From: a virus
DNA: 64,000 bases
IMG/VR virus record: IMGVR_UViG_3300028840_005764
Span: 1 to 64,000 of that record
Reading direction: 5' to 3' (one strand)
Program-made: the position numbers and the translations under genes
Part shown: positions 10,401-28,500 of the stretch, one piece after another
How positions within the stretch are numbered: the stretch's first letter is position 1
Layout of the letters: each line of letters starts with the position of its first letter
Notes under the pieces: generated by a model
The model's input: only the letters and a program-made list of their open reading frames with translations
Databases searched by the model: none
Told to the model about the DNA's origin: nothing

Positions 10401-11792
10401 ACTGAATACAATGGGAATGCCGTAGCAGATGCCGGTAGTTGGATTGATGTCACCGGCGGTAGAATTGACTTCAGTGAATTTTCTTCCATAGATTCGTCTT
10501 CATATATCTACATAGATGAAGGTGGGCTTGGAAGTCAACGTGATGATGTAATCTTTGTTGACGCCGCTCGAGGCCATGATCTATTCAACGGTTCAGAAAA
10601 ATATCCTTACGCCACCATCGCTACAGCAATAACAAGAGCCATCGCCATTCAAACTGCTGACTCGGCACAAAGAGTCACCATCGAAGTCGCTTCAGGTACC
10701 TACACCGAGACACTGGACTTCAGCGACACCAACCTGCACAAGTTGGATTTGACTGCAGCTGCTGTCGATGTTGGTCTACCTTTCCGTCCTCGCCCGGTGT
10801 CTGTCACAGGCATCAACACAACAGCTGATAACGAGAATCTCGATCTGACAATAACAGGCTTCGTCTTTACTGGGGACGTAACGTACTCATGCGACGTTGC
10901 TGGTGCCAGCAACGATTCTTATCTGAGCTTCCACAAGTGTCAGTTTGCTGCGCTCCAGGACGCCACGTTCGGTTCACTGATCCTACTAACATTTGACGAT
11001 TGTCGTCTCAATACAGAAGCTCTTGCGATAACCAATGTTTTTGAAACCAGAGTGACAAATACCGTAATCGCTGGTGTGGGTAGTGGCACAAGAACTTGGG
11101 ATTGGGACGATACGGGAGTTATCCCGGACGTCTTTACCAGCGGTCGAATTCGGGTCGAGAATAGTTCTATTCTTTCTGCTATCACCTTGGCTAGGTCAGG
11201 GACGACAGGTGGTATAGATTTAATGTGTTATGGCGGCGCCCAGATAAGTCCCGTCGGGATTACGGTTCAAGCTGGGTGCGCGCTGAGCTTGAACACAGGA
11301 TCGTACCTCTATTCCTACACCAACGCCGATGACTTCCAGTCTGGTTCGACGCTGAATCTCTGGGGTGGTGTTCTTTTTGACAATCCTGCCGGTAGGACCC
11401 TCAGCGGCACGATCAACTACGAGGCTCCGTACTATACGGACAAGGTCATTCTGAATGATCGTTTGGAGTTCATCAATGGAGCTCGCTTCGTCAACGCTGT
11501 CAACGACGATGTGGATACGGGTACAGAGGATGTTGACACATTTGCCGATACACTAGGTGAAGGTGTTGACTGGGACTACGTGGTCAAGAAAGGTGCCAAC
11601 ACCAGAAAAGGTACGGTGTCGGCGGGATGGGAGTCCAGCACCGATACCATTACCCATACAGAAACGGGAGTGGAGGTTGGTGATACCTCCGACCTCACGT
11701 TCGACGTCGACATCAACTCCAACACAGTCAGGCTGCGGGCAACGGCAACCAGTGACAACTGGGAAGTACGTGTCGTGCGGCGCTTGGTCTAG
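7419..11792 (+). CDS. Large fibre/spike protein with four tandem beta-helix (pectin-lyase-like) units
   Basis: Four copies of xYV...G.D..NGS...PyxTIxxAI...GtYaE (DUF1565-like cap), each followed by beta-helix-like sequence (FxNCxF repeats). Confidence 0.75.
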   Translation: MTAFEDFVNTELPRRPAQLNQTITGYDGDPNDGGAPAILQGAPAGTNFLQATGNVYWRKRTTVADSWEQNDSIGPWAEVVGDDLYVGGVGADDSNPGTQAKPFETMAAAIAEAAVIQAAAPTQPVIIHVATGTYAENIVIENSDLRNLTIVGAVEDPRAVSSVTFQSLQSTVNNEELRTLRIIGIRFNSPSELSCPTTGSSNNFLYSLGLLFNCYFRSGGLTVQSANFLWTYASTFQGLTLRNVYSVVMQEGGWIYVPTYDFIIDADDTEAVPNLMDSVNQMQIEMRRGVRVLNPKSISITKTSWSGALNVYVFDGCQFTSNGTFTLGAGALLSLVRAWGSTGDTATINGQFYITQSGFEPYGMAVSSGGELGLTGFDAYVYAWGAVSTIASGATLYLWGGVLWNPWDYWTIDAGANVYFDPAEAREDVENLVHVSPKYGHDKYNGSQRYPVATIAAAIAKVVAIQTADSTKMVRVVVGIGTYAEPLTLENVNLHQLEVEAELDDTNSLGVIIQRITSAQDNENLEYLQISNIKFTAASTISCDVDGANNHLGDTGLNFKNCRFAGVTTLEACYIAWFKDCYFPQNISITNCGRVDFDACSQVQPGKKLIGIIDALANKNNNWYGYQVIYPYGESVLSAPDMSVINGDTGWIGVGIWTGSSIGATTEVGTFGDQTWVDLYVGAYLYGSAGSSFSSGSWVDFYGGILSSDYTIDPAATIAIDEGPTGPAAQRDDIIYVDGNLGHAGYNGSEKYPYKTIGDAITRAIAIQTADPTQHTQILVSSGAYAENLVLENTNLVSLELQAISEGSGTESRRVEMLNLTSTQDNENLEFLKIAGFEFTGDVNLSSDVAGSDFGSEEIVFDNCLFSKATGTFTLYSVNVIRFTNGCYVNQPAFNFTNCWNIIFEFRSLMRGTGSIVGVADESSLKPSGWTDITCGIVCSTGSALPSINLDTQNGSTVWIGGFCYGGRIGNQGGATDSYFGAYGWLAVEEGGQFTEYNGNAVADAGSWIDVTGGRIDFSEFSSIDSSSYIYIDEGGLGSQRDDVIFVDAARGHDLFNGSEKYPYATIATAITRAIAIQTADSAQRVTIEVASGTYTETLDFSDTNLHKLDLTAAAVDVGLPFRPRPVSVTGINTTADNENLDLTITGFVFTGDVTYSCDVAGASNDSYLSFHKCQFAALQDATFGSLILLTFDDCRLNTEALAITNVFETRVTNTVIAGVGSGTRTWDWDDTGVIPDVFTSGRIRVENSSILSAITLARSGTTGGIDLMCYGGAQISPVGITVQAGCALSLNTGSYLYSYTNADDFQSGSTLNLWGGVLFDNPAGRTLSGTINYEAPYYTDKVILNDRLEFINGARFVNAVNDDVDTGTEDVDTFADTLGEGVDWDYVVKKGANTRKGTVSAGWESSTDTITHTETGVEVGDTSDLTFDVDINSNTVRLRATATSDNWEVRVVRRLV

Positions 11793-12258: not shown

Positions 12259-12474
12259 ATGAATGATATGAAAAAATCATATCAGCCACCAAAGATAGAA
12301 TCAGAATCTCTTTTTGATGGTTTTGCACAATTTCCTTGTTCATATCAACCGCAGTGTACTGGACAACCACCATGTATAAACATAAAAGAAAATATCATAT
12401 ATAATGATGTTGAACGTGTAACCATAAAAAAAGAATCCGAGGCAGACGATGGCTTCAGAAATTCATTATGTTGA
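12259..12474 (+). CDS. Small Cys-containing peptide with RiPP-leader-like N-terminus
   Basis: MNDMKKSYQPPKIESESLFDGFAQFPCSYQPQCTGQPPC... fills the gap between flanking genes. It is the 3' part of track ORF 12007..12474. Confidence 0.5.
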   Translation: MNDMKKSYQPPKIESESLFDGFAQFPCSYQPQCTGQPPCINIKENIIYNDVERVTIKKESEADDGFRNSLC

Positions 12475-12739
12475 AAACGATACGCTGCCGAAGCTGCAGT
12501 GTGTTTATACGGGCGTAGATTTGGGTGGGGCCACCGTTGAACTCCACATCGGATATGACGTGCCCTTGACGATTGTCGGTACGGTGACGGATCCACCGAA
12601 CGGCGAGTTCGAGTTTGGATATAATATTGGTGATCTTCAGACGGGTACATGGGAAGCCGAAATTCAAATTACTGATAATGCTGGTGAAGTGATTACTTTT
12701 CAAGGGCTTAAGTTCATTATTAAAGCACAGATTGCATGA
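12449..12739 (+). CDS. BppU-N-like Ig-fold virion protein
   Basis: NDTLP...VDLGGATV...VTDPPNGEF...GTWEAEIQIT..G.VITF pattern. Confidence 0.65.
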   Translation: MASEIHYVENDTLPKLQCVYTGVDLGGATVELHIGYDVPLTIVGTVTDPPNGEFEFGYNIGDLQTGTWEAEIQITDNAGEVITFQGLKFIIKAQIA

Positions 12740-13380
12740 CCATTTATCTAAATAGCGGACCTGCAGAAATCGCCCTCACGAAGGGCGATTGTCTTTGTGA
12801 ATTGACGCCTGGTTCATATCGTATTGAGTTGGTAAAAGGAACGAATGCTGTTGAATTATCTACTGCTGAAGCTAATTTAAGTCTCGAAACTTTGTCAGAT
12901 GGTGTGAACAAAGTTTATATTGAAGCAGAGCCAGAACAACAAGCTATTGAACTTGATACTGTTGATAACGTTGTTCAACTTGATGTTAGTCAAAATGCTG
13001 TCACACTCGAGAAGGAAGAATACACAGCTGAGATGTCAGCTGGCGCAGATATTGTTGAACTTAGTGTTGATGCGATAGTTCAACCAATACAACAGATTGT
13101 ATATACAACTGATAGATTGACAGGGCGTCCTTTAATAGGCGTTCAAGATGATAGTAATAGGACTTTCACAACTTATGAAAAATTTGTACCGGAATCGGCT
13201 GAATTATTTCATAATGGTAGAAGACTAACGCGTTCAGACACAGATAATTTGCTACTAGGGGATTATTTTTGTGTAGAAAGTGGAGGGGCGGGAACTGGTT
13301 ACAACACAATAATTTTTCTTAGAATGTCACCAGCAGAAAGATCAGTTATAAGAATAAACTATGTTCCCGTTTTCTTTTAG
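12736..13380 (+). CDS. Virion protein with acidic repetitive N-terminus and small beta C-terminal domain
   Basis: ATGA overlap. C-terminal LIGVQDDSNRTFT...LFHNGRRL...DY...ESGGAGTGYNTI domain typical of phage fibres. Confidence 0.65.
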   Translation: MTIYLNSGPAEIALTKGDCLCELTPGSYRIELVKGTNAVELSTAEANLSLETLSDGVNKVYIEAEPEQQAIELDTVDNVVQLDVSQNAVTLEKEEYTAEMSAGADIVELSVDAIVQPIQQIVYTTDRLTGRPLIGVQDDSNRTFTTYEKFVPESAELFHNGRRLTRSDTDNLLLGDYFCVESGGAGTGYNTIIFLRMSPAERSVIRINYVPVFF

Positions 13381-13391
13381 GAGGAAGAAAG

Positions 13392-15356
13392 ATGCCTACG
13401 ACTCTGTACAATCTCATCGACCAGGCGCTTGACATTGCCGGGTCATACACACACGACGCGGCCATGGACTGGGACGAGGAGGACAGCTATCTTGGGCGTC
13501 CTTTGTCTGGTCAGTCGGGTTCAACTGCCAGCATCATCACTGGCGCAGGTGCCGGTGAGGCACGTGTGGATGGCGTCAGCGGTATGACAGCCGCTGATGA
13601 AGGGAAGTTCCTCACCATCAGTGGAGCCGCTTCTGGCGCCAACAACGGTACGTTCATCATCTCCAACGTCGTGGATGCGGATACCGTTGATGTGGTCAAT
13701 GCCAGCGCCGTGATTCCAGACGGCAACAACGGCTCAATTGCTTGGGTCGAGCGATACCCGTACAGCGCGGAAGACGATTTCAACTATATTCGTACCGACC
13801 GCCAAGCCATCAAGGGTGTGGACTACCACGCAGCAGTCCCGACGTATGAACGGCCAGATGCCGTTGGCACGGATGTGGACGCCAACCTTGCAAATCTCGC
13901 GGGCAAGACGGCTGATGCCTTGGCCACGGTGCGTAACGTCTACACCGAGGACGTCGCACTACCACCGTCCATTGCCGACGGTGATGGCAATGTGCTCATC
14001 AGTGATGAAACATTTACGACAACCAACTTCCACTTCACTAGTGACGACGTTGACAGCTTCGTCACGCTCACCGACGGCACGGCAGTCGGGGCCACAGGCA
14101 CGTACCGAGTCAAGACCGTAACAGACGGTCAAACGCTTGAGCTTGATGGTCTGGCAGCGACCGGCGCGGGTACTGTCACCTGGGTCCGCGAGGGCGATCT
14201 CAAGGGCATCTCGACCAGTCGTGATTATGCTGATGCCGTTGATCGCACTGGTGTACCGATCGCGGATAGTGGCGCTGAAGACGAGACGGTGTACGACGCC
14301 ACGTTCATCGAAGTGCTTGAGGAACTTTCAACCGGCGGAAAAGCCACCGTCGAGAGTGAGGCTGCACTTCGTATCTTTGGTCGTAGTTTCGGTGATGAGA
14401 AGGATCCCAATCGCACCGTCACAAACGAGGGCAGCAGACTTTTCATGCAGCTCAAGACCGGTGACAACGATGGTTCGGCCACCGACTCATCCGTCGAACC
14501 GATCTCAGGACGGAGTGGCAGTGCTGCGAGCTTGCCGGGCAGCAACACCAACGTCACTGGCTTGACTGGAATGTCAGAAGCCGATATCGGCTTGTACATT
14601 ACAATCTGGAATCTCGCGGCTGACGAGGCTGGGCACTACAAAATCACTGCCGTGCCGTCAGCAAGTAGCGTGACCGTTGAGCGAGGTTCCAACTTCACGG
14701 CGGATGCCTCTGGTGCCATCGAATGGCAAATCAGCCGTCACAGCGGAGTTCTTTTCACATTTCACGGTGATCGCTTCCGCAATGACAATTTGTCGGAAAC
14801 CTGGGGTCGTGCCGTTCTCGTAGGTGGTAGTGGTGGCACCAGCGAGCTGGTCGTTGACATCGACCAAATTCGTGATTCCATTGGGATCCAGGATGGTGAT
14901 ACCGACCTCAGCGCGTACCTCACCAATACCGGGAACTACTTCACGTTTGTGGATTTGCCTGATGCGACTCCAAGCGTGGTGGAAGCTCTCAACGTACTCA
15001 ATGAGCAGATTGGCAATAGGACATACACGAGTTCGTTGCTGACTGATGGTCAAACTATTACCGCCAGTATTGAAGCAATTGCCAATGCCATCGACGATGT
15101 TAGTGTCGTAAGATACATTGAAGTAGCATCAACAGATATCAACGTAGGAACAAGTCATACGCTTCCTGGCAGCGCGTCCTACACACTTGATGGTACTGGT
15201 AATGGACGTAATATGTGGTTCTTCAGTCGTGGAATTCTACGACATCCTGGAACCGACCCGTCGTACTACGAATATGAAGAAGAAAGTACAACTACAATCC
15301 TAGTGAAACGTAAAATCAAAGCCGATGACGTTATGGACTTCTTCATTCTGAAGTAA
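13392..15356 (+). CDS. Virion structural protein with three repeated beta-barrel modules
   Basis: SD AGGAGG, GC3-rich. Three repeats of xD.GxxxTIxxxxxxxxGxYxI. Confidence 0.75.
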   Translation: MPTTLYNLIDQALDIAGSYTHDAAMDWDEEDSYLGRPLSGQSGSTASIITGAGAGEARVDGVSGMTAADEGKFLTISGAASGANNGTFIISNVVDADTVDVVNASAVIPDGNNGSIAWVERYPYSAEDDFNYIRTDRQAIKGVDYHAAVPTYERPDAVGTDVDANLANLAGKTADALATVRNVYTEDVALPPSIADGDGNVLISDETFTTTNFHFTSDDVDSFVTLTDGTAVGATGTYRVKTVTDGQTLELDGLAATGAGTVTWVREGDLKGISTSRDYADAVDRTGVPIADSGAEDETVYDATFIEVLEELSTGGKATVESEAALRIFGRSFGDEKDPNRTVTNEGSRLFMQLKTGDNDGSATDSSVEPISGRSGSAASLPGSNTNVTGLTGMSEADIGLYITIWNLAADEAGHYKITAVPSASSVTVERGSNFTADASGAIEWQISRHSGVLFTFHGDRFRNDNLSETWGRAVLVGGSGGTSELVVDIDQIRDSIGIQDGDTDLSAYLTNTGNYFTFVDLPDATPSVVEALNVLNEQIGNRTYTSSLLTDGQTITASIEAIANAIDDVSVVRYIEVASTDINVGTSHTLPGSASYTLDGTGNGRNMWFFSRGILRHPGTDPSYYEYEEESTTTILVKRKIKADDVMDFFILK

Positions 15357-15362
15357 TCTTGA

Positions 15363-15575
15363 ATGTTAAAGGCAGATTTAACCATTGTGCAGGTCCCTGC
15401 ACCACCTGATCGGTGGTGTCAGGGACATATGCGCAATGTTCCTAAAGATGCCAAATATCATGATGCTCCAATAAGATTTTTTCATATAGTTGGCGACAAC
15501 ATAGATATGGTCATATGTGAACCATGTTTAGTGATTGCCAGCGCCATAAAAGATAAAAAGAAAAAAGGATTATAA
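15363..15575 (+). CDS. Small putative zinc-binding protein
   Basis: WCQGH...ICEPC (CxxH/CxxC). Fills an operon gap. Confidence 0.55.
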   Translation: MLKADLTIVQVPAPPDRWCQGHMRNVPKDAKYHDAPIRFFHIVGDNIDMVICEPCLVIASAIKDKKKKGL

Positions 15576-15579
15576 AACC

Positions 15580-16041
15580 ATGAGTGAAAAAGAAACCAAC
15601 AACAGGCTAAACCAACTACAACAAATCAGGAATGGTGGTCTATCTGACCATCAACAATCTCTTCAACGTCTGAAAGTTGAATTTGCAAGATATGTTGAAT
15701 TAACAAGTTTGACGCCAGAAACGGCGTTAGCACCATTAATGGACGTGGTGAAGGAAGCCGAACGTCTACGACGCAATGAAATTTCTGGTGCAGAGCGCAT
15801 GGAACGTCAGGCGGCAGCATCACGGTCCAAAGCCGACGGCTATGCTATGATAAGCTCTATCGTCCTGAATGTAGTCAATAGATACATTCAAGGCGCAGAA
15901 CGTGAGATAGAAGAGCGCAGGATGTTGGAGGAACGCGAAGGGCGTGAAGAGGACAAAAAACGTGGAGTTTCTGAAGAAATAGCAGAATCTCCACCCAAGA
16001 AAAAAACCAATAAAAGACCTAGAAAGAAAAAGGCTGAATGA
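15580..16041 (+). CDS. Hypothetical coiled-coil protein with basic tail
   Basis: Helical heptads, ATGA overlap with the next gene. Confidence 0.65.
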   Translation: MSEKETNNRLNQLQQIRNGGLSDHQQSLQRLKVEFARYVELTSLTPETALAPLMDVVKEAERLRRNEISGAERMERQAAASRSKADGYAMISSIVLNVVNRYIQGAEREIEERRMLEEREGREEDKKRGVSEEIAESPPKKKTNKRPRKKKAE

Positions 16042-16535
16042 CGTTATCGCGCAAAGATATTGGCGATCTTGAGATCATTGATGCTGAAGAACTGCTCAGC
16101 GATGGTACAGTTGAATACCATTCTGATGACGTGACTTCAGTTGTATCTGGCGTAGTAACTGTATCCAATGACGACCTGAGAAATCCCGATATAGCTCCAG
16201 AAGTAGATGATATTTTTGTATTAACTGGTGCTACTGCTGGCAATGGTACTTATACTATAAATACCGTAACAGGCGCTTATACTTTCACTGTGAATGAAGC
16301 AATTCCAGATAGTACTGGGGGAAGTGCTAGTTTTCGTCATCCATCTGGAGCTTTGAAAGTTGGGGTCGATCCATCGCAACTTTACAACTCTACACAGACT
16401 AATTTGCAAGGAGTAATCGAGGATATCGATGCAGTTGCTGGAGGAACTGCGGACCTTGGTAAGTATATAATCACTACAGAAGGTGGTATCGTCTATACAA
16501 ATGACGGTGACCTTGTGCTTAAGGTGGCAGCATAA
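16038..16535 (+). CDS. Virion protein with one copy of the shared beta-barrel module
   Basis: EVDDIFVLTGATAGNGTYTINTV motif. Coupled overlaps at both ends. Confidence 0.65.
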   Translation: MTLSRKDIGDLEIIDAEELLSDGTVEYHSDDVTSVVSGVVTVSNDDLRNPDIAPEVDDIFVLTGATAGNGTYTINTVTGAYTFTVNEAIPDSTGGSASFRHPSGALKVGVDPSQLYNSTQTNLQGVIEDIDAVAGGTADLGKYIITTEGGIVYTNDGDLVLKVAA

Positions 16536-17440
16536 TGGCTACATCACTACATAAAAATCTTGTTGATTCTGAGCTGCACGAGGCCAAAGGTGCGGCAGGT
16601 GCCAGCGTCAACCAAGTGCTGACAGCGGTTGGTGATGGTACCGCAACATTTCAAGATCTAGTTAGTCATGCGTCGACACATGAGGACGGCGGGGCTGATG
16701 AAATTAGTGTTGCTGGGCTCTCTGGCCAGCTGGCTGATGACCAACCGGCATTAGCACATGATTTAGGTGGTTCTAAGCATAATGTTGATACATTGGCTAA
16801 TCTCAATTCAAAAATATCAGATGCCACTTTAGATGATTCAAGTTCTGCACGTACGCCTACAGCGCACGCTTCCACGCATCAAAATGGTGGAGCTGATGAA
16901 ATAAGTGTTGCTGGTTTGAGTGGTACACTTGCAGATGAACAGGATGCAGGAAGTATCAAAGGAGTCACTGTAGACGATACAGACATCGCTGATGGGAAGA
17001 TCCTTAAGTACAATTCGACAAGTGGCAATCTTGAATATGAAGACGAGGGTGGTGCGGGGGCTGTTTTTGGGACGCAGTATCAGCAAGAAGAATCATCTGG
17101 CGAGAGTTCGACCACATCGTCTACGTTCCAGGATAAGTTGTCTTTGACTACACCAACAGTTCCTGCTGGTACTTATCGAGTTGGTTGGACAGCTATGTTT
17201 TCCAATGTAGATAGGGCGGGCGAGGCCCGTCTTTATAATTCTACTGACACTGTGATGCTGGGTGGTCTGAAGCAGTATAGACCAAAAACTTCAGATATAT
17301 ATGAGACGATCACAGACTTTGTCGAGGTAACATTTTCATCCAGTGGTTCAAAAACATTTGTGATTCAATGGCGTGATGTACTCAGTGGTAATACGCAGTC
17401 GATTAAAGAAGCGCGTATTGAATTTTGGAGGATTGTATGA
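16535..17440 (+). CDS. Fibre protein with His-containing repeats
   Basis: Two HASTH(E/Q)xGGADEISVAGLSG repeats and a C-terminal jelly-roll-like tip. Confidence 0.7.
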   Translation: MATSLHKNLVDSELHEAKGAAGASVNQVLTAVGDGTATFQDLVSHASTHEDGGADEISVAGLSGQLADDQPALAHDLGGSKHNVDTLANLNSKISDATLDDSSSARTPTAHASTHQNGGADEISVAGLSGTLADEQDAGSIKGVTVDDTDIADGKILKYNSTSGNLEYEDEGGAGAVFGTQYQQEESSGESSTTSSTFQDKLSLTTPTVPAGTYRVGWTAMFSNVDRAGEARLYNSTDTVMLGGLKQYRPKTSDIYETITDFVEVTFSSSGSKTFVIQWRDVLSGNTQSIKEARIEFWRIV

Positions 17441-18048
17441 GCTGGTCTAACACGTATTCGGTGTCGGAAGATTTTTCCAATGGTGTTGCGCTTAATAAAT
17501 TTCATGGCGAAATCGTAGCTTTAGAAATTGGTAGTGCAACATTTCAAGGTGTCAATATTGCTGGTGATGATTGCGCAGTCGTCTTTTCCGCGGAACCCTC
17601 TGCGGCCGACAAAGTTCTAGTCGACGGCGCTGTGGCCTCACATGATGGTATACCAGCTCCAGTGTATGAATATGTTACATCTTCTAAGGTTAGCGCCGGT
17701 GTCATCAATATAACTGAAGATGAAGATTGGCAGGATATAGACGGCCAGGTAACGACTGCCGCATTTTTTGTTACTCAAGCGTCAGATGCTCTTGGGAAAT
17801 GGGTTGGTTCGGTAAAAGTAAGTGGTACTGGGGCACAGATACGTGCTATCTGGGCGAGTGATTCCGCAGAGCTAAAAACGCCTCATTCTGTGGCGGATAC
17901 CTCTGGCGCGTGGACACCTATTACGTTTTTCTCTGATGGCGCATTCAAACTAGGCACTGATGATATCGTAATACAAGCAAGATTAAATGGGGCTTCGAGT
18001 TTTCAAATACGCCATAGTTCAGTAACATTTTTGAGGAAATCTGTATAA
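17437..18048 (+). CDS. Fibre-associated protein
   Basis: SD GGAGG and ATGA overlap give start 17437. Beta-rich C-terminal domain. Confidence 0.65.
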   Translation: MSWSNTYSVSEDFSNGVALNKFHGEIVALEIGSATFQGVNIAGDDCAVVFSAEPSAADKVLVDGAVASHDGIPAPVYEYVTSSKVSAGVINITEDEDWQDIDGQVTTAAFFVTQASDALGKWVGSVKVSGTGAQIRAIWASDSAELKTPHSVADTSGAWTPITFFSDGAFKLGTDDIVIQARLNGASSFQIRHSSVTFLRKSV

Positions 18049-18052
18049 GTTT

Positions 18053-18580
18053 ATGGGGGCTGTGATGAAGATTTTGATCGTGGAAGATGATCAAGATACC
18101 GCCAGAGCCATGCAAATAGTTTTAGTGAAGTTGGGCAATATAGTTTTTAAATCTAGTACTTTGAAGAATGCTATACATCTATATAAAACACACAGTATTG
18201 ATATAATCATTCTTGATTTGAGTATTTTGGATAGTAGGGGTTTAGAAACAGCTTATACGATTAAAAAATATTTAACTAGAAATACTGTTTTAATTGTTTA
18301 TACCGCTAGACAAGAATTGTTGGACAAATCTTTAGAAATGGGTGTTGATGAATTTTTGGTGAAAGGTGATTTTACACCTCTTGATTTACCTGGGATTATC
18401 GAACAAGCAATAATGAATAAGAGAATGGCTACGGCAGTGGAGAGAAATGAACGCATGTTGAATGGCGAGGAAATTACTCAGCCTGGTGTAGTGCGCGACG
18501 CCGGTAACGTTGGCGATAAACTATTGGAGGTTGCTGAAGAAATAAGATTGACAAGTACTGTTTTGATTGGGGACGGTTAA
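18053..18580 (+). CDS. Stand-alone response regulator receiver (CheY-like) protein
   Basis: KILIVEDD acidic pocket, IILD phospho-acceptor Asp (LDLSILDSRGLET), IVYT Thr, GVDEFLVK Lys. About 50-aa tail with no recognisable output domain. Start may be 18065. Confidence 0.85.
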   Translation: MGAVMKILIVEDDQDTARAMQIVLVKLGNIVFKSSTLKNAIHLYKTHSIDIIILDLSILDSRGLETAYTIKKYLTRNTVLIVYTARQELLDKSLEMGVDEFLVKGDFTPLDLPGIIEQAIMNKRMATAVERNERMLNGEEITQPGVVRDAGNVGDKLLEVAEEIRLTSTVLIGDG

Positions 18581-18584
18581 TACG

Positions 18585-19073
18585 ATGGCATCAAAAGACA
18601 GTGGTATTAGCAGCGCTTTGTTAACTCGAATAGCAGATAGTCTCGAGGAGAATGGTTCTGCGTTGAAAACAGCTCGTGCTGAAAATATGAGGGTAAATGT
18701 ACAGCTTGCTCAATTAACTACAAATCTTGAAACTTTTACTAATTCTGTCAATGCGCGTTTAGATCGACTTGAAGCCAGGATAGAAGGAAATGGTGGCCCT
18801 GGTATCAAAACAAGCGTCGCTTTGTTAATAAAGAGATTAGATGATTTGGAAATCGATGTAAATGGGATAGAAAAAAGTAAGAAGATTAGTGCAGAAAAAC
18901 GAATCGATTCGTTAGAAGCACAGAAAAGGGCGGATAAAAATTTTCGTTGGACTACGTTTATCGCTATTGCTGCTATTTTGATTTCATTATCATCTTCTAT
19001 TGGTAATTGCGCACCGAAAATCGTCAGCATGTTTAGTGAAAAATCGCCACAACCATCTGGAACAACACCGTGA
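18585..19073 (+). CDS. Coiled-coil protein with C-terminal TM (XhlA/holin-like architecture)
   Basis: Heptad coiled coil with GNGGPG motif, then TM WTTFIAIAAILISLSSSI. GTGA overlap with patatin. Confidence 0.6.
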   Translation: MASKDSGISSALLTRIADSLEENGSALKTARAENMRVNVQLAQLTTNLETFTNSVNARLDRLEARIEGNGGPGIKTSVALLIKRLDDLEIDVNGIEKSKKISAEKRIDSLEAQKRADKNFRWTTFIAIAAILISLSSSIGNCAPKIVSMFSEKSPQPSGTTP

Positions 19074-19894
19074 CAGCCTGGGTCTTTGGTGGCGGCTCTT
19101 CACTCATGTACATGCATCTGGGTGCTGCTCAGTGCCTGTACGATCATAATATGACCCCAACTTCTTTGTACGGTGTGTCGGCGGGTGCTATTGCCGCCGC
19201 GTTATTGTCGACCGGCAAGCAACCAAAAGAATTTATCAATGAAGCGAGGAAATTATTACCTTCCAAAATGTTAAGTTTTAACTGGAAATTTTTTTTTGGT
19301 GATAAAGGTTTTTTACATTTCAGAAAAATGGAGAAAATGCTTACTCCATATGTGCCAGATAATTTCGCACACGCCAAGATACCACTAACAATTGTCACAA
19401 CTGATTATAAAGCAAAAAGGGAAAAGATATTTTCTTGTAGTGATAAACCAAAAACTTCAGTAACAAAAGCTTGTAGAGCGTCTTGTAGTATTCCAATTCT
19501 TTTTGCTCCAGTAAAAATAGGCCAAGAATTAGTTGACGGCGGTGTGGTAAATCATCTCCCAGTAAATCTTCCATCTACGCCGTCTATTGGCTTCCGTCTT
19601 GTTTCAGATACCCGCGCTAGTCGTAAACCGTCGTTTATTCTGAGATTGTTAACATTTGGATGGATAACTTTTATTAGTAGTATATTGAGTTGTTTTATTC
19701 ATACCATAGAAAGATTACATATTGATGATGCAATATTTACTAATGTTATTACATTGACAGCGCCGTGGAACTCATTAGATTTATGGGGCCTTGATGATGA
19801 GGTGATTGATAAACTATATAATATTGGATACAATACAGTTGAAGAAAAATTTCAAAGTGGTTGGAAATTTGACAGTAGGATTTCGTTTATTTAG
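19070..19894 (+). CDS. Patatin-like phospholipase
   Basis: Gly-rich loop GGGS, nucleophile elbow GVSAG, RASCSIPILFAP, catalytic DGG (LVDGGVVNHLP). Confidence 0.9.
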   Translation: MTAWVFGGGSSLMYMHLGAAQCLYDHNMTPTSLYGVSAGAIAAALLSTGKQPKEFINEARKLLPSKMLSFNWKFFFGDKGFLHFRKMEKMLTPYVPDNFAHAKIPLTIVTTDYKAKREKIFSCSDKPKTSVTKACRASCSIPILFAPVKIGQELVDGGVVNHLPVNLPSTPSIGFRLVSDTRASRKPSFILRLLTFGWITFISSILSCFIHTIERLHIDDAIFTNVITLTAPWNSLDLWGLDDEVIDKLYNIGYNTVEEKFQSGWKFDSRISFI

Positions 19895-19902
19895 GAGAAG
19901 AA

Positions 19903-21090
19903 ATGGCGCTTATACGCATTACAATAGATATCAAAGAAGACGTTGACATTGCCCTTATCCATTTCGATAAGATTCAGGTATGGCGTGCTGAAACGCGGTG
20001 GGGTGCATATACCGAAGCCACGTCGCCGGCAACTCGCATTGACCTTGCGACAGATCAACAGATTTATGATTTTGATGATTATGATAGTTCTGAATTCTTC
20101 TGGTATCGGTGGAGATTCTATAACAGCACTGGAGCCGCCGGCAACTACTCAGAACCATTTCAGGGGTATACTCCTGGCACCACGTACTGTAGCTATGAAA
20201 ATATGAAACGGATTTTGAATACTGGCTATACTTCTGGCAAGATTCGTTTTTCTGACGCATTCAAGAATTTGCGTAAGGCCAATGACGAGCAAGATGTTGA
20301 TCTCACAACAGTGACGATTGGTCCTAGCTACTACGGGCAAGAGGACTTCGCTATCACCTTCTTAGACGCAACCAATTTCAAAGTTGAGGTTGGTGAAGGT
20401 CATCAGCTTGCCATGCGTCTGATTGGAACTGGCGACATTTCTACAGACTTTGTGGCAGATGACTATTCTGTTCGTATCAAGGCCAGTGACTGGAGTGGTG
20501 TACCGGTCGCTGGCGATCAGATCTTGTTTACAACAGATAGTCATATGTCGATGAATGATGCTGTGCAATTTATAAATGATGCTGAAATTTTTGCAGATAT
20601 GATAATTGAGGAAAATATTGGTTTTACAGAGTTGAAAAGAGATGAACTTCGTTTTGCTAGAGACGAAGTACCAAAAGGCGTGCGTCAGGCCACGGCGAGA
20701 ATAGCCGCATTTTTCATCTATAGTTCAATCTATCATCAACAATCAATTCCAGGTCTTCCGAACAATATCAACGATATCTCGAATGCCGATCGCCGTGATG
20801 ATCTCAGTAGTTGGATTGAGCAGGCGAAACGTTATCTGCAAGGATTCATCAAAAAGTACAGCATGTTCTTCGACCCAGAAACAGGAGACGCCGTCACTAC
20901 CGCCCCTCGTTGGCAGTCAATGGACACGCTTTTTGATGGTGTTGGTGTTTATGGCGTCGGCGAAGGTCTCAAGCTCCCTGCCTTGGATGAGTTCAAGGAG
21001 CAGACTGATATGAGCTACGCCGGGTTACTCGACTGGGATTTATTGGAATATTATATTTGGAATAGTTGGGATAATTCTGGATTGGAATAA
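19903..21090 (+). CDS. Head-tail adaptor protein with extra N-terminal Fn3-like domain and internal insertion
   Basis: YCSYENMK adaptor-like start motif and VPKGVRQATARIAAFFIY helix. First of the neck genes. SD AGGAG. Confidence 0.6.
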   Translation: MALIRITIDIKEDVDIALIHFDKIQVWRAETRWGAYTEATSPATRIDLATDQQIYDFDDYDSSEFFWYRWRFYNSTGAAGNYSEPFQGYTPGTTYCSYENMKRILNTGYTSGKIRFSDAFKNLRKANDEQDVDLTTVTIGPSYYGQEDFAITFLDATNFKVEVGEGHQLAMRLIGTGDISTDFVADDYSVRIKASDWSGVPVAGDQILFTTDSHMSMNDAVQFINDAEIFADMIIEENIGFTELKRDELRFARDEVPKGVRQATARIAAFFIYSSIYHQQSIPGLPNNINDISNADRRDDLSSWIEQAKRYLQGFIKKYSMFFDPETGDAVTTAPRWQSMDTLFDGVGVYGVGEGLKLPALDEFKEQTDMSYAGLLDWDLLEYYIWNSWDNSGLE

Positions 21091-21096
21091 CGTAAT

Positions 21097-21714
21097 ATGT
21101 TTAATATAGAAACAAATTTTGATGAATTCATCAAGTCAATTGATGATGCAATATTGGCGTTACAAAAAGTCGATGGGCTGTTTGGTACTCCAGCTTTTAA
21201 GACTTTTATAAATAAGTTATTTCGTGATGTAAAGGATATGTTTTTAAAGAATATCAATGATTGGAAAGTTGGTGAAATCGATGTGCAATCGGACAGATGG
21301 GAATCAACTAAACAGATTTTGATGGATAAGCCTTTGGAGAAATATGAAGAAATTCTTATTTCACGTGGTTATCCAGCAAGTTATATGCAACGCACGAGTC
21401 AAAAACCAGAGAAAGTTAAGTCTTCTGAGCCGTGGAAAGCCACGGAATTCATGTCTGATGATTTGATCAAAGGTGTGAACGCGCCAATGAATGTAGAATC
21501 TAGTGAAAATAAATTGACACTTACTTTCTCATCAAGTTTTAGAAATTTTCTTGAAAACTATCCATTAATAGTTGATGAACAAATTATGCAAGAATCACAA
21601 GGCCAATATAGTTTATTGCAATTATATGACGAACAGCGTACAAAGTTGATGTCGGAATTTATGGAAATAGTACCTAAAATCATAGATCAAATATTCGCTG
21701 AGGCGAGCAGATGA
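21097..21714 (+). CDS. Putative neck/tail completion protein
   Basis: Position between adaptor and terminator, helical, 205 aa. Assignment is by synteny only. Confidence 0.45.
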   Translation: MFNIETNFDEFIKSIDDAILALQKVDGLFGTPAFKTFINKLFRDVKDMFLKNINDWKVGEIDVQSDRWESTKQILMDKPLEKYEEILISRGYPASYMQRTSQKPEKVKSSEPWKATEFMSDDLIKGVNAPMNVESSENKLTLTFSSSFRNFLENYPLIVDEQIMQESQGQYSLLQLYDEQRTKLMSEFMEIVPKIIDQIFAEASR

Positions 21715-22223
21715 CGCAAGATAGGCCTACAGCTCATCTCATCAAGACTGGCAATTATTTTGCTGATGGTGTCAACAATATCGTTGAGATTCTTGAACGC
21801 GAACAGCGCGAGGATACAGAACAGAAACTGACATATCTCAATGGTGTACTCAAAATCCACGATGAAGATATTCTACTCATTCCCAAAACCCCATGCATTG
21901 CTGTTTCCTTCGAGGGTTTTGAAGAGATAATCCACACCATAGGAAAAAGACAAGTAACAGTCGAAACAACATTACTTATAAACACCTACTATTACCACCA
22001 AGAAATAAGCAGAGAAATAAGAAAAAAAGAGATAAGAGACGCAATGTGGGAGCTTGCTCGTATCTTGCGACGCAATTCGGATTTGAACGGGCTCAGTTCG
22101 AAGGGTGCGCAGATACCGTCGGGCGAAGTGATGTCTCGGTTGCGGCAGAATGGCGCTTTTTCTGGGGGATTGATCAGGATGCAAGTCCCAATTCTCCACC
22201 AATCGAGGAGAGGAGTCTCTTAG
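21711..22223 (+). CDS. Tail terminator-like protein
   Basis: PCIAVS...ILRRNSDLNG pattern, immediately before the tail tube gene. Confidence 0.6.
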   Translation: MTQDRPTAHLIKTGNYFADGVNNIVEILEREQREDTEQKLTYLNGVLKIHDEDILLIPKTPCIAVSFEGFEEIIHTIGKRQVTVETTLLINTYYYHQEISREIRKKEIRDAMWELARILRRNSDLNGLSSKGAQIPSGEVMSRLRQNGAFSGGLIRMQVPILHQSRRGVS

Positions 22224-22236
22224 AGGAGTCAAAAAC

Positions 22237-24186
22237 ATGGGTAGCTTCGGACGCATCGCAATCGGTGCCCGTGGCCAGCTGTCCTATGCTGAAGAGCTGG
22301 ACGCGCTTGGCTGGGGTGAACCGATTCCACCGACCCAACGGGTTGACTTCCTTACCGAGTCGTTCAACAACGAAATCGGTAACCTCCTGTCGGAGGCGCT
22401 CAACCCATCGCGCGGTATCTCGAAGCGTGTCCGTGGTGTCAGCAACATCAGCGGCGACGTCGCTGTGGAGCAGAACACTACCGGGTATGAAACCTGGTAC
22501 AAACACGCATTCGGTGATTCCGTTACCATCAACAAGTGCGACGGTGGTGTGCGCACGCAAGTCACAGCAGATTATTCCGGCGGTGCCGGTGATATTTCTG
22601 TTGGCGACACAAGTGCATTCGACGACGGTGCTGGTGATTGGGACCTGGTCGCGGTCTACAAGGATTCGACCACAGGTTTGCTCACGACCCAGGCGCTGGA
22701 GTACAGCGCGAAAGCCGCCTCACCAGCCACCTTCACACTCACCGGAAGTCCCACAGCCATCCCGCAGGGCGCATGGATCATGCAGACCTACGGCGGTGGT
22801 TCCGCGTACTGGGACAGCGTCTACACCCACTACATCGAGGCGGCTGCCGTTCTCCCGACCGGCATGACGTTTGAGGTGGGTCGTGACGTGGCTTTCTTCG
22901 TGTACTCGGGTTGCAAGTTCAACACCGTGGAGAACACCTTCACGGCTCAGGAGATCTTGCAGGCCACCTTCGGTACCATCGGACGAGCTGAGTACAGTGG
23001 CGCCGATCTGCTTGTCGCAACGACCGACACGACCACTGAACTCGAGCTGAAGAACTACTACCTCGACTACTACAACGCGTCAGGCGCCATCGGCTACGCG
23101 TTTGCAGACGATGGTGGTGTGTTCACAGACGAGACCTCAGCAGCGAATGACGACACAGCCGATGACGTCACGTTGCTGCCGGCGGCTGTTGCAGCCAACG
23201 ATGCCTTTTACTTCGGCTCGGATGACGTGTTCACCGCGCTGGAAGTGATCATCAGCACGCCGGCAGCTACACCAGTCGGTTGGACTGTGGATTGGGAGTA
23301 CTACGACGGTAGCGCATGGACGACGTTGCCGTTCCTGGTTCAGGAGTTGGAGACGCTGGAAGAGGCGGCAGGCACCTACGTGAACACGTGGAATGCACCT
23401 GCCGACTGGACCGCGACCACGGTCAATGCGCAGTCTGCGTACTGGGTCCGTGCGAATCTCAGCGCTGCAACGTCTGGTGCTGGCCCGCTTGCACAGCGTG
23501 TCTACACCGGTCCTGGAATCGTTGGTTTCGGCAAGAGCGGGACGATCCAGGTGGGCTCGGAGAACGAGATCACGTACTCCGGCACCGAAGTCTCGATCAC
23601 CGCGGGCACCGCGAAGCTCCTGACCGTCTCGAACTGGGCTTCTGGCTCGACACACGCGATCGACGAGCCCGTGGCGCCTCAGGTGACATGGGGTTCAGAT
23701 GTTGCGGAACCGACCGCGACAGACCCGCTGTCTTCGTTCCAGGCCGCGGTGTACATCGATGGCGTGGCGCAAGAGGTGTTGAGCGCGACTTGGACGTTGA
23801 ACAACAACTTGTTCACGGACAAGTACCAGCTCGGTGATCGCTTCCGCGCTGGTCTCCCGGAGCAGCAACGTACGGTCGAGGGTTCGTTGAACGTGGAGTT
23901 CGACGACATGATCCTCTACCACAAGTACGTCAACGGTACGGCTGCGTTTCTCGAGATTCGGTGTGTGGACGACGGCTATCAGATCGACGATTCAGCACCG
24001 GCTGGATTTGAGGTCTATGGCCAGAAGCACTGCATTCTGCCGAACATCGAGTACACAGGCACTACACCGCAAATTGGAGGACCTGACCAGATCACACACG
24101 ACATGCCGTTCACCGCTCTCATCGACAGCACGAACGACATGAACGAAATCGCCGTGATCTTCGTCAATGACCGTGCTACTATCTAG
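22237..24186 (+). CDS. Major tail tube protein with large inserted domains
   Basis: N-terminal GARGQLSYAEE...DFLTESF...ISGDV; YTH...GMTFEVGR...YSGCKF; C-terminal LNNNL...RTVEGSLNVEFDD...TPQIGGP. Very GC3-rich, SD GAGGAG. Confidence 0.85.
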   Translation: MGSFGRIAIGARGQLSYAEELDALGWGEPIPPTQRVDFLTESFNNEIGNLLSEALNPSRGISKRVRGVSNISGDVAVEQNTTGYETWYKHAFGDSVTINKCDGGVRTQVTADYSGGAGDISVGDTSAFDDGAGDWDLVAVYKDSTTGLLTTQALEYSAKAASPATFTLTGSPTAIPQGAWIMQTYGGGSAYWDSVYTHYIEAAAVLPTGMTFEVGRDVAFFVYSGCKFNTVENTFTAQEILQATFGTIGRAEYSGADLLVATTDTTTELELKNYYLDYYNASGAIGYAFADDGGVFTDETSAANDDTADDVTLLPAAVAANDAFYFGSDDVFTALEVIISTPAATPVGWTVDWEYYDGSAWTTLPFLVQELETLEEAAGTYVNTWNAPADWTATTVNAQSAYWVRANLSAATSGAGPLAQRVYTGPGIVGFGKSGTIQVGSENEITYSGTEVSITAGTAKLLTVSNWASGSTHAIDEPVAPQVTWGSDVAEPTATDPLSSFQAAVYIDGVAQEVLSATWTLNNNLFTDKYQLGDRFRAGLPEQQRTVEGSLNVEFDDMILYHKYVNGTAAFLEIRCVDDGYQIDDSAPAGFEVYGQKHCILPNIEYTGTTPQIGGPDQITHDMPFTALIDSTNDMNEIAVIFVNDRATI

Positions 24187-25522: not shown

Positions 25523-28500
25523 ATGGCAGACCGTCAGATTAACTTCGCCATTAATATTTCTAGGTCTGACCAGAATGTATTCAGAACCCTTATAAAAGAA
25601 TTCCAACAATTCAGAAAAGAAGCTGGTGCGGCAAATCGCGCGCTTGCCGCTATGTCCAAGATAAGCACTAACGCCACCAATGTCACACAAGCTGCTAGTG
25701 CCTTCAACGCGTTATCAGACGCAATTGCCAAAGTAGCAACTTCAGTGAATGCGGTTGATCTAACAAAAATTACAGCCATGATGCGTCTTCTCAAGACTCA
25801 AGGTGAACTTGCTACGGGGCAGATCAAAGCGCTCCAAAAGCAGATGGATGCGTTGAATGCAACGCGCAGCCAAAAAGGCGCAAAGGACGCGGCATCAGCA
25901 GCTGATAAAGAAGTAAAAGCACAGGCAAAAGTTCTTGAAAATATAAGTAAAGTAGTTAATGCCAGACAGAATGAACTTACGCAATTAAGAAATAAGATAC
26001 GGCAAAGCGCTGAGGCCGGGGAGGCAGATGCGAGTGCTGCGCGCAAGATGCAGACTCTGTCTACTGAGCTCAGAAAACTGAGAGTAGCTGGTGTTGCAGC
26101 TGTTAAATCGCTCGAAGAGCAGCGTACTGCTGGGGCGAATCTTGACAAAAATACTCTTAATTTAATTCAATCGTTTGATGGTGTTAAGAAAGCTATCAAT
26201 AGTGAAATTGTTTCAATACAAAATTCTAATCAAACTCTTGTAAACGCAGAAAAAGTTATTCGTAAATTTGCTGTTGCCAATCGGCAGGCTTCAGCCGCTG
26301 CTATTTCTGCGTGGAATAAATACGCTACTGAACTACAGCGTAGTATGAAAGTGGCTGCGGCCGCCACTAAGACTACTACCGGGCAAGAAGCCGCTCGGAC
26401 TCGTGTAGCCGATGCATCCGCACAGCTTGGTAAACTTCAAGCTGCTGGCGCGCCATCTCAGGTTATTGACGCGCAGCGTGTTGCTCTTGATAGGGCTACA
26501 GAATCTTATAATAAATATTCAGCAGCTGTACAGTTGGCTCAAATTGCAGTAGAAAAACAAAAGACTGCTCAACAAGCAGCTCTTACGGTTACACAACGAA
26601 TTGAAGAATATCGCGGCGCTTTGTTGAAACAGCGTGAAGCTTCGATCAGGGCACTACAAAATGTCGAAGACGCAGCAGCTCAACGCGCGCTGGCCAACGC
26701 CCAAAAGGAAGTGAAAGCGGCCCGTCAACGCGTACAAGCCGCTCGTGAAGTGTATGCAGTTGAAGCAGGTGTGCGTAAGAGCGCCGTTGAACGAATGGTG
26801 CAGGCCAACAGCGAGGCGGCAAAGTCGGCTACTGCAGCCGCGAATGCGCAAAAAAATGCATCGAAAGTCGCGAATCAAGCCGCCAGAGAACAGGCAAACG
26901 CACAACGTCAAGCCGCTAAGGCAGCGGCGGCGAATGCCAAGGCCACCACAAACTTCGCTGACCAGATTGCGAAGGGCTTCAACAATGTTATTGCTTCCCA
27001 GCTTAAATATCTGGGTGCGTCATTTGTTGTCTTCCGTCTGATTCAACGCATACGTGAGGCTTTTGAATCTATTATTGAAGTTAGCGATCGTGTGGCTAAA
27101 GCCTTTGCCGTATCGCGTTCTGCTATTTTGGGGTTGGAAGAACGGTATGATGCGCTTGGCGATTCTATTGAGAGTACTGCCATCAAGATGGGCAGGAGCA
27201 TCAAAGACGTCAGTGAAATATTGTTCCAATTTGGTAGTGCTGGTTTGCAGGCTGAAGAGTCAATGGCGGCTCTTCAATCTACAATGCGACTTATTATTGC
27301 TACTGATGCGGATGTAACAGCTACTACGAAAACAGTGGCTGGTGTTTACAGGCTTCTTGGTAATCAATTAGATTATCTTGGTACACAAACACAGAAGTTT
27401 GCTCGAATTAATGATGTGTTGGCCGCGACCTATCGTGACAATCAGGTCGAGCTCAACGAATTGAATCAAGGTTTGAAGTTTGCGCTTCCTGTTGCAAAAC
27501 AGTTGAATCTTTCGTTTGAACAAGTCTCAGGTATTCTGGCTACACTCCAGAACAATATGATTCGTGCTGGTGAAGCAGGTCGTTCATTGCGTTCGATCTT
27601 TTCACGCATGTCATCACAGTCAGAGGAATTTGCAGAAGCTTTTGGTATTGCTCTGGACCCAGATAAACCTCTTAGTTTTATTGATATGTTGGAAAAGCTG
27701 CAGAGCCGTATGAGTTCTGGCGCTTTGACTGTTGATCAGGTTGGTACTGTTTTTGAACGTTTTGGTTTGCGCGGTGCTAACTCGTTTCTCGTTTTGACTC
27801 AGCAATTTGATTCTTTGAGCGAGACAATCAGAAAATTAGAGGAGGATTCCCAAGGCGCTGCTGCGACCATGGCGCGCGTTCGTATTGAAAGTATTGCCGG
27901 CCAGGTTAACAAATTCAAAGAGACTGTTCTTGAATTAGCACGTGATGCCCTGTTGCCATTGGGTGCAATTATTTTTGGATTAATAGAAGCCTTCAATGAC
28001 TTTTATGAGGTTTTACAAGAGACAGGATTAGACAAATATTTGAAAATAATTTTGGCTATTACTACAGCATTAATAGCAATAAAAATAGCAACTGTTGCTT
28101 GGACTGTTGTTACTAAGTTGCAGACTTTGTGGTTAATTAGGCAACAAGCCGCTGTAATAGGATCTGTGGTTGCACAACATCAATATATCAGAGCTCTACA
28201 CCTTTCTACTGTTGGCGTGTACACAAATATAAAAGCTCTTTTTTCAATGAGTGGTGCGCTGGGTGTTTTAGCAGGTGTATTGCAAACTGTTGCCACGGCT
28301 ATGATTACGGCGTTTCCATATGTGCTAATAGGTGCTGCGATTGCACTAATAATATATTGGATTTATAGAATGCGTAATGAATATCGCCTTACAATAGAAG
28401 AGAATAATAAGAGATTAGAGCAAATCAGAGAGGAAATTAGACAAAGAAGACACGAGAGAGATGCGCTTGATCGAACAATAAGTAAATTGGAAGAAGTTAA

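Follow-up and report, generated by a model that had tools for sequence, protein, structure and literature searches.

Positions 18053-19894 of the window, the 64,000-nucleotide stretch of DNA analysed here (the first 64 kb of IMG/VR virus record IMGVR_UViG_3300028840_005764), carry a cassette of three coupled genes, 1.8 kb in length. The genes encode, in this order, a stand-alone response-regulator receiver (REC), a coiled-coil protein with one C-terminal transmembrane (TM) helix, termed CC-TM, and a patatin-like phospholipase. REC and CC-TM are an obligate, conserved pair that recurs in diverged phages. Judged from gene content, conserved motifs and predicted folds, the three genes may constitute a signal-gated, membrane-directed late module that probably acts in lysis or egress, a tentative reading held with slightly less than even confidence. 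The record is a complete virus genome of 142,861 bp with direct terminal repeats, for which an exact 144-bp repeat was found. The features of the cassette are listed below in window positions; the phospho-site residues were assigned from AdeR and family alignments, and the hairpin loop from the alignment and the structure model.

18053-18580, plus strand: stand-alone receiver REC, 175 residues (171 residues from an alternative ATG at 18065)
18083-18091, plus strand: codons of REC E7-D8-D9
18215-18217, plus strand: codon of REC D51, the predicted phospho-acceptor
18302-18304, plus strand: codon of REC T80
18362-18364, plus strand: codon of REC K100
18470-18577, plus strand: REC C-terminal tail, a [W/Q]PG linker and then an amphipathic helix with a motif of the type D-K-[VI]-G-D..L....A-E-E-[LI]-[RK]
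18585-19073, plus strand: CC-TM protein, 162 residues, a helical hairpin and one C-terminal TM helix
18786-18803, plus strand: CC-TM hairpin loop GNGGPG (family motif NGNGxxG[LI]KT), with the (near-)invariant R58 and E63 upstream
18951-19016, plus strand: CC-TM TM helix (residues 123-141), with a basic stretch before it and the Cys142 motif (19008-19016) after it
19070-19894, plus strand: patatin-like phospholipase, 274 residues, GTG start, no signal peptide
19085-19102, plus strand: patatin Gly loop, FGGGSS
19172-19186, plus strand: patatin elbow, GVSAG (Ser37)
19535-19543, plus strand: patatin DGG motif (Asp156)

The gene upstream of REC stops at 18048. The REC stop codon TAA (18578-18580) is followed by a 4-nt gap, TACG, and the CC-TM ATG at 18585; the CC-TM and patatin genes share a GTGA overlap (19070-19073). 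These junctions were read directly and agree with the tight packing, a 4-nt gap and then a GTGA overlap, described in an earlier reading of the DNA from its letters alone (the original prediction). In the variant contig L007, which is 93% identical, the overlap reads ATGA, and the ATG at this place confirms the GTG start of the window patatin and the translation of its Gly loop. Comparison with L007 yielded ratios of nonsynonymous to synonymous substitution (dN/dS) of 0.07 for REC, 0.07 for CC-TM and 0.06 for the patatin; all three genes are therefore under purifying selection and hence maintained. Promoter and terminator scans returned sites no commoner than in shuffled sequence, none of which sets the module apart from the late operon. 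Relative to window positions 19040-19060, L007 (1900-1950) shows an in-frame 18-nt insertion of six codons in the CC-TM periplasmic tail, just before the overlap at the patatin start.

The comparative evidence comprises about a dozen gene contexts, several of them from contigs read as gene tables only, without DNA. A Response_reg gene of 166-171 residues lies directly upstream of CC-TM in all eight lineages with a readable context, namely the window with L007, L010-12, the P0056 contig, L014, L015, L016, the P0067 contigs and L021, whose contig retains just the tail of REC. The pair sits on differing phage backbones and the CC-TM identities are only 25-37%. The patatin joins the pair in three diverged lineages and in two gene orders, with overlaps or gaps of a few bases. 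The order is REC, CC-TM, patatin in the window, and patatin, REC, CC-TM in L010-12 and in the P0067 contigs (different backbone). The L010-12 trio occupies the same slot as that of the window, before genes of 398, 204 and 172 residues and the tube gene. Synteny in other phages, which the original prediction had proposed to examine, is thus found in distant phages in permuted order, and the treatment of the three genes as one cassette is borne out, with REC and CC-TM adjacent in every readable context and the patatin attached in three lineages. The recurrence of the pair, and of the patatin with it in two orders, argues that the three genes function together and did not become neighbours by chance. 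Three unlinked cargo genes in one insertion hot spot would account for the occurrence of each component without the others and for the absence of the whole block from the closest backbone relatives, L005/L006. That explanation is highly improbable given the adjacency of REC and CC-TM in eight of eight lineages at such low identity and on different backbones, the permuted recurrence of the trio, the start/stop overlaps or few-base gaps and the strong purifying selection. Together, REC and CC-TM define a pair of protein families not described before, without functional annotation in Pfam, PHROG or NCBIfam, and a literature search turned up no account of a single-domain receiver from a phage that is paired with either a membrane protein or a patatin.

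REC matches the Pfam family PF00072, Response_reg, with an E value of 4e-14 and 53 bits (cut-off 30.2). The AlphaFold2 model adopts the (βα)5 receiver fold with five alternating strands, at a predicted local distance difference test score (pLDDT) of 79 overall and above 85 over the domain. Beyond this core, the model contains an extended helix 5, a disordered stretch at residues 137-148 and a helix at residues 149-167. The closest solved receivers are AdeR and KdpE. E7-D8-D9, D51, T80 and K100 align with the corresponding AdeR residues and are kept across the phage family, as expected for the intact receiver, with the Asp pair, Asp, Thr and Lys all in place, that had been called from the sequence; throughout the phage REC family the acidic pocket, the Asp, the Thr/Ser and the Lys are conserved. 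The phmmer program connects the window REC to its relatives with E values of 9e-36, 1e-23 and 5e-17. A word-based search with REC alone retrieved only a 91% variant and missed the family, which surfaced through the CC-TM search, and no equivalog model matched REC. The C-terminal tail is kept in the window, L007, L010, L014, L015, L016 and the L021 fragment, and the family alignment places none in cellular receivers; the tail is a candidate docking element.

No kinase had been seen in the window, and this holds for all 142,861 bp, where HisKA gave no match and GHKL only one below threshold (18.7 bits). Phosphorylation of REC would therefore have to come from host kinases or acetyl phosphate. 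The sole GHKL-like sequence is a 442-residue open reading frame (ORF) at genome positions 99289-100617 on the minus strand, which combines a sub-threshold GHKL ATPase match (HATPase_c_3, 17.9 bits) with a SprT-like one and is not a convincing histidine kinase. The single-domain response regulators CheY, Spo0F, DivK and CpdR share the receiver fold and phospho-site with REC, and in such proteins the output must be a protein-protein contact. REC differs from the CheY-type regulators in that it is phage-encoded, belongs to a genome without a kinase, has a specific C-terminal linker and helix, and its gene is always coupled to that of a membrane protein.

The AlphaFold2 model of CC-TM (mean pLDDT 82) comprises two long helices, residues 10-67 and 74-151, joined at GNGGPG. 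The protein has one hydrophobic segment, residues 123-141, and hydropathy and the modelled hairpin together agree with the coiled coil and single C-terminal TM helix read initially. The predicted arrangement is a cytoplasmic antiparallel hairpin, with helix 2 running into the TM helix and ending in a short periplasmic tail. Cys142 would lie on the outer side of the membrane, within a [NTS]-C-[GA]-P motif that is present in 15 of 15 CC-TM members, 14 of which have the TM helix. The invariant Cys may form a periplasmic disulfide or carry another modification. A lipoprotein site was considered and rejected, since a canonical lipobox fits the Cys in only 4 of 14 members. Spanin identity was likewise rejected on this lipobox count, on the C-terminal location of the TM helix and on the cytoplasmic placement of the coiled coil by the positive-inside rule.

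The CC-TM family amounts to 16 clusters among 1.84 billion cluster representatives, with 25-37% identity over the full length. Searches of Pfam, PHROG and NCBIfam yielded no family of known function for CC-TM, and a PDB fold search with the model yielded no match. DUF7201, a lead from a protein atlas (score 0.91), was confirmed by Pfam on 0 of 15 members and the genome search likewise gave it no support.

The patatin matches the Pfam family PF01734 with an E value of 8e-32 and 111 bits (cut-off 27.7). Its elbow G35-V-S37-A-G39 and its D156-G-G motif do not vary among the 13 aligned sequences, the phage clade included, which upholds the Ser/Asp dyad (S37 and D156) of the original prediction; lipid acyl-hydrolase activity is putative. 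The oxyanion loop is indeed atypical, FGGGSS being devoid of the basic residue of GGGx[RK]G. Loops of the GxGxx type without the basic residue (SGSGF, GGSGF, SGSSF) occur across the entire phage clade, and cellular relatives in the same alignment have SGGGxRG; the loop is therefore no oddity of this gene. The phage patatins are monophyletic and stand apart from cellular RssA-like proteins (support 100/99). Their clade profile aligns with PlpD (PDB accession number 5fqu) at an E value of 7e-41 and much more weakly, at ~1e-10, with CapV. PlpD/RssA-type patatins are accordingly the best catalytic-domain match, alike in the Ser-Asp dyad and the overall domain, whereas the phage protein has no POTRA domain or β-barrel, no signal peptide and no basic residue in the Gly loop, and falls in a separate clade with a C-terminal 'EIERKHIEDA'. 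The window patatin consists of the catalytic domain and a clade-specific C-terminal part only, without a fibre-docking domain. Compared with GenBank phages it gave only partial matches, at 27-33% identity, in uncultured 'Acinetobacter phage MD-2021a' records.

In sister phages the same patatin is accompanied by other proteins. The L002, P0005 and L024 contigs carry the patatin in the same slot, directly before the homologue of the 395-residue gene that follows it in the window, and it is preceded there by a coiled-coil protein of 73-118 residues with an N-terminal TM helix and by an MshEN-like protein of 122-127 residues. The coiled-coil proteins of L002 and L024 are 34% identical. Pfam returned no match for the MshEN-like protein at an E value of 0.05, and a profile built from two of the phage proteins matches MshEN/T2SSE_N domains, with E values of 2.6e-9 for PilF (6f8l, three repeats), 3.2e-5 for MshE (5htl) and 9e-4 for PilB. 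MshEN/T2SSE_N is the receptor domain for cyclic di-GMP (c-di-GMP) in pilus ATPases.

L002, 7621-8004: stand-alone MshEN-like protein with tandem 24-residue motifs, directly before the patatin
L024, 3618-3986: stand-alone MshEN-like protein with tandem 24-residue motifs, directly before the patatin

The MshEN domain of MshE and PilF (5htl, 6f8l, 8pdk) thus has a stand-alone counterpart that takes the place of REC before the sister patatins; the window has none. Such a domain, encoded on its own within the late operon of a phage, seems not to have been described. The L003 contig encodes a zinc-ribbon protein, a 93-residue coiled-coil protein with an N-terminal TM helix and a 66-residue protein, followed by the patatin, and in L009 a protein with an N-terminal TM helix precedes the patatin. 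A small, putatively cytoplasmic sensor-type domain, a predicted single-pass membrane coiled-coil protein and the patatin make up a recurring design. In all versions the coiled coil is predicted by the positive-inside rule to be cytoplasmic, and the soluble parts have no signal peptide, which would bring all parts together on the cytoplasmic side of the host membrane. The presence of a different signalling-type domain and membrane coiled coil before the same patatin, in the same slot, gives indirect support to the idea of a signal-gated lipase. The strict adjacency of REC and CC-TM, the dedicated REC tail and the exchange of the sensor argue for physical and functional coupling.

A mechanism can be proposed on this basis. 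CC-TM would be anchored in the host inner membrane with its hairpin facing the cytoplasm, and the receiver would dock on the hairpin via its conserved C-terminal helix. Asp51 would receive its phosphoryl group from a histidine kinase of the host or from acetyl phosphate, and its phosphorylation state would decide whether the complex is held inactive or released. CC-TM would then assemble and/or recruit the cytoplasmic patatin to the inner face of the membrane, where the patatin would cleave phospholipids and help the envelope to collapse at the end of infection, alongside a candidate Amidase_2 endolysin encoded elsewhere in the genome. To our knowledge, the solved patatin effectors (CapV, ExoU and VipD) all need an activating ligand or partner, which makes a gate for a cytoplasmic phage patatin plausible. 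Binding and phosphorylation are inferred, as are the direction of control, the lipid that is cleaved and the link to lysis, the last of which is the weakest step.

A phospho-site that is intact and conserved in a phage without a kinase may also be viewed differently: tethered to the inner membrane by CC-TM, the receiver might serve as a decoy for the histidine kinases of the host or as a sink for their phosphate, and the patatin would be an independent neighbour. Such a sink could, for example, blunt envelope-stress or receptor-expression responses late in infection. REC is nearest to receivers of the OmpR family (AdeR, KdpE, PmrA and CpxR), the REC/CC-TM pair exists without the patatin, and phages are known to encode response regulators with which they exploit host signalling, such as CtrA in phages of Alphaproteobacteria (PMC9437464). 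However, a sink or decoy leaves unexplained why the patatin joined the pair three times in two orders, and why an MshEN-like protein and another membrane coiled coil precede the sister patatins, and the translational coupling to late structural genes would be late for host reprogramming. We regard a sink or decoy, the example included, as unlikely.

The cassette lies at the end of a variable accessory block, whose boundaries in the window are as follows.

12449-12739: conserved structural gene flanking the block
12736-19894, plus strand: variable accessory block, 7.2 kb, about 10 genes (fibre-like genes and the module)
19903-21090: conserved structural gene flanking the block
19903-24186, plus strand: conserved structural genes of 395, 205 and 170 residues (no known family) and then Phage_tube_2, which mark the patatin slot
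22237-24186, plus strand: Phage_tube_2 protein, 649 residues, E value 1.4e-27

The same downstream order follows the patatin or the module in the L002, L010, L024 and P0005 contigs. The genes downstream had been called neck genes at first; this has no family support for the 395-, 205- and 170-residue genes, and the next recognisable gene is that of the Phage_tube_2 protein. The only additions from pattern scans of IMG/VR and of JGI metagenomes were L005/L006, L024 and L013/L023, the last being one and the same contig as L010/L011. In L005/L006, the closest relatives by flanking genes, the homologues of the flanks abut and the whole block is absent. This absence, together with the other gene sets that accompany the patatin in L002 and L024, identifies 12736-19894 as variable cargo at a hot spot for accessory genes of virion and membrane.

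Within the structural operon the patatin is always found at the 3' end of the variable fibre-like block, and L003 has the 214-, 654- and 165-residue fibre-like genes of the window along with its patatin. Both observations are in line with a virion-associated entry lipase, packaged or attached near the fibre apparatus, that would help to breach a membrane at infection and for which REC and CC-TM would be assembly or regulatory accessories or would be unrelated. A patatin at the end of the tail module of phage WO has been proposed to act in entry or exit (PMC3173496). The presence of patatins in phage WO, to which the original prediction referred, is correct as regards this structural-region patatin; it belongs to a different lineage and serves only as an analogy. 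A tblastn search of GenBank phages with the window patatin yielded no WO match, and the WO patatin further differs in that no receiver or hairpin partner is described with it and the host is the intracellular Wolbachia. An entry lipase is improbable here. The direct neighbours of the patatin are membrane proteins and cytoplasmic signalling-type domains rather than fibres, neither an integral membrane protein nor a phospho-switch is a likely part of a virion, the gene order around the patatin is not fixed to any fibre gene, and the patatin has no domain for docking to one.

The proposed gating of the patatin recalls CapV of the cyclic-oligonucleotide-based antiphage signalling system (CBASS), a signal-gated patatin lipase in which a sensor and an effector produce membrane damage as the output; in the window the gating is proposed only. 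In contrast to CapV, the phage patatin has no nucleotide-sensing extension, no CD-NTase (cGAS/DncV-like nucleotidyltransferase) is found among its neighbours, and it belongs to a late phage operon rather than a defence island. A CBASS assignment was therefore rejected: there is no cyclase among the neighbours, the match to the generic phospholipase effector of PADLOC reaches only 30 bits, and the profile is nearer to PlpD than to CapV. More broadly, the arrangement of sensor, membrane protein and patatin, with the sensor swapped, is typical of defence systems, and the cassette lies in a variable hot spot. A phage-borne conflict system, for superinfection exclusion or abortive killing, could use the sensor and the membrane adaptor to trigger the patatin upon a competitor phage or stress. 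Weak matches to the CBASS-type phospholipase effector (the 30 bits above) and to an anti-phage phospholipase (19.8 bits, cut-off 400) point in the same direction. Set against these are the failure of all PADLOC system models to match, the lack of a cyclase or other known sensor enzyme, the translational coupling of the genes, which belong to the late structural operon of this 143-kb phage and show no promoter signal of their own, and the phage-specific patatin clade, nearest to PlpD/RssA and not to CapV. A conflict system is thus very unlikely.

The original statement that no endolysin is visible in the window holds wherever Pfam was applied; the large tail proteins gave no lysin domain, the 3517-residue ORF not having been scanned. 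The genome encodes one candidate outside the window.

Genome 135375-136187, minus strand: Amidase_2 endolysin candidate, 270 residues, between a pyruvoyl-dependent arginine decarboxylase and a 5'-3' exonuclease

This is the only recognisable peptidoglycan hydrolase of the genome and it lies outside any lysis cassette. With such a candidate elsewhere, the patatin is not needed as the sole lytic enzyme. No holin or endolysin adjoins CC-TM in the window. In L014 and L016 the REC/CC-TM pair is followed, 1.3-2 kb downstream and in the same direction, by a VanY-like/peptidoglycan-binding endolysin candidate and a protein with two TM helices. The XhlA family (PF10779, cut-off 34.7 bits) is matched weakly by 3 of 15 CC-TM members, with a best E value of 1.8e-5, and is not matched by the window protein. 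XhlA of PBSX and gp24.1 of SPP1 are known as the C-terminal-TM partner of a two-TM holin (PMC6316719). CC-TM resembles them in being a small protein from the late region of a phage, with a cytoplasmic coiled coil at the N terminus and a single TM helix at the C terminus, whereas it is about twice as long and has a two-helix hairpin, the GNGxxG loop and the invariant Cys after the TM helix. The late-operon position, the endolysin-like genes in L014 and L016, the weak XhlA matches and the XhlA/gp24.1 analogy are the grounds on which a link to lysis is suggested.

Several observations weigh against a signal-gated lysis module. Membership of CC-TM in the XhlA family failed, with an hhalign probability of 0.7% for the family profile against SPP1 gp24.1. 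The 'holin-like' membrane attack originally envisaged is, as regards CC-TM, a conjecture. The genome yielded no recognisable holin, the module lies amid fibre-like structural genes, and the endolysin candidate is ~25 kb away across the genome ends. The endolysin calls in L014 and L016 are weak (VanY 21.6 bits, below the cut-off; PHROG endolysin 1e-5). REC and CC-TM have no patatin beside them in L014 and L016 and none downstream in L015 and L021, the L021 pair being followed by an unrelated 232-residue protein; conversely, the patatin has no adjacent REC/CC-TM in L002, L003, L009 and L024. The parts, being found separately, can thus each work without the other. Fusions of REC to CC-TM or of REC to the patatin were absent from 8000 long candidates, which is weak evidence. 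The motifs of the MshEN-like proteins start with SLG, MLG or LLG instead of RLG. The leading Arg, which we take to be the residue that contacts c-di-GMP, is thus replaced, and c-di-GMP binding by these phage proteins cannot be assumed. Finally, given its absence from L005/L006, the module is mobile cargo rather than a fixed component of this type of phage.

Two further lysis systems provide precedents only. In T4 lysis inhibition, which involves the holin T and the antiholins RI and RIII, the timing of lysis depends on a signal, superinfection sensed in the periplasm. Mycobacteriophage LysB is a cutinase-type esterase that acts on the mycobacterial outer membrane and completes lysis alongside the peptidoglycan hydrolase. 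Neither has a sequence relationship to the module, and the T4 signal is not phosphorylation. Most of what is known about the control of lysis timing comes from holin/antiholin systems and T4 lysis inhibition; phage lysis lipases are known mainly from LysB, and signal-gated patatins as host defence effectors such as CapV. If the favoured reading is true, a phage patatin wired via a membrane adaptor to a phospho-switch or a c-di-GMP-receptor-like domain would join these three themes, and lytic phages would be able to read the two-component or second-messenger state of the host directly at the membrane. The further proposal of a new class of lysis or egress control, in which an anchored phospholipase attack is gated by interchangeable receivers of the host phosphorelay or second-messenger state, is rather doubtful. 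It would assign a phospho-receiver to the window phage and an MshEN-like domain, which may read c-di-GMP, to its sisters, and would let the phage time the destruction of the host to host physiology.

The virus is a large tailed phage. The stretch is present in one sediment and one seawater metagenome, both of which are possible sources, and a sequencing-run look-up listed no RNA dataset as carrying it. No DNA similarity to GenBank phages was found, nor was a CC-TM homologue in GenBank phages, and no prophage or host copy was found in a search of one genome per GTDB species. The three genes were described at the outset as AT-rich. The difference is real, at 36-39% GC (guanine plus cytosine) compared with 45% for the genome, but it is nothing unusual in a genome with ORFs of 30-66% GC, 26% of which are below 38.5%. 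AT-richness as a mark of foreign origin was rejected, the values being unexceptional within the spread of the phage's own ORFs. Over the whole genome the ORF GC content averages 46% with a standard deviation of 9.5%, and Gly/Ala-rich structural genes are at the high end of the range.

The remaining structural genes assigned in the window are as follows; the replication genes start at ~58 kb.

1496-2755: major head protein
5171-7129: sheath-like protein
25523-36076: 3517-residue ORF, tape-measure-like

A 1457-residue protein encoded at 7419-11792 has an N-terminal match to β-helices of the DUF1565/pectinesterase type, possibly a polysaccharide depolymerase among the head-proximal fibre genes. 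ARAGORN located 26 tRNA genes at genome positions 83.4-95.0 kb and 128.0-133.0 kb, mostly in one minus-strand array. The homologue of the 3517-residue ORF in a relative has 3864 residues and contains PhageMin_Tail, implying either a tail of unusual length or a tape measure with several domains.

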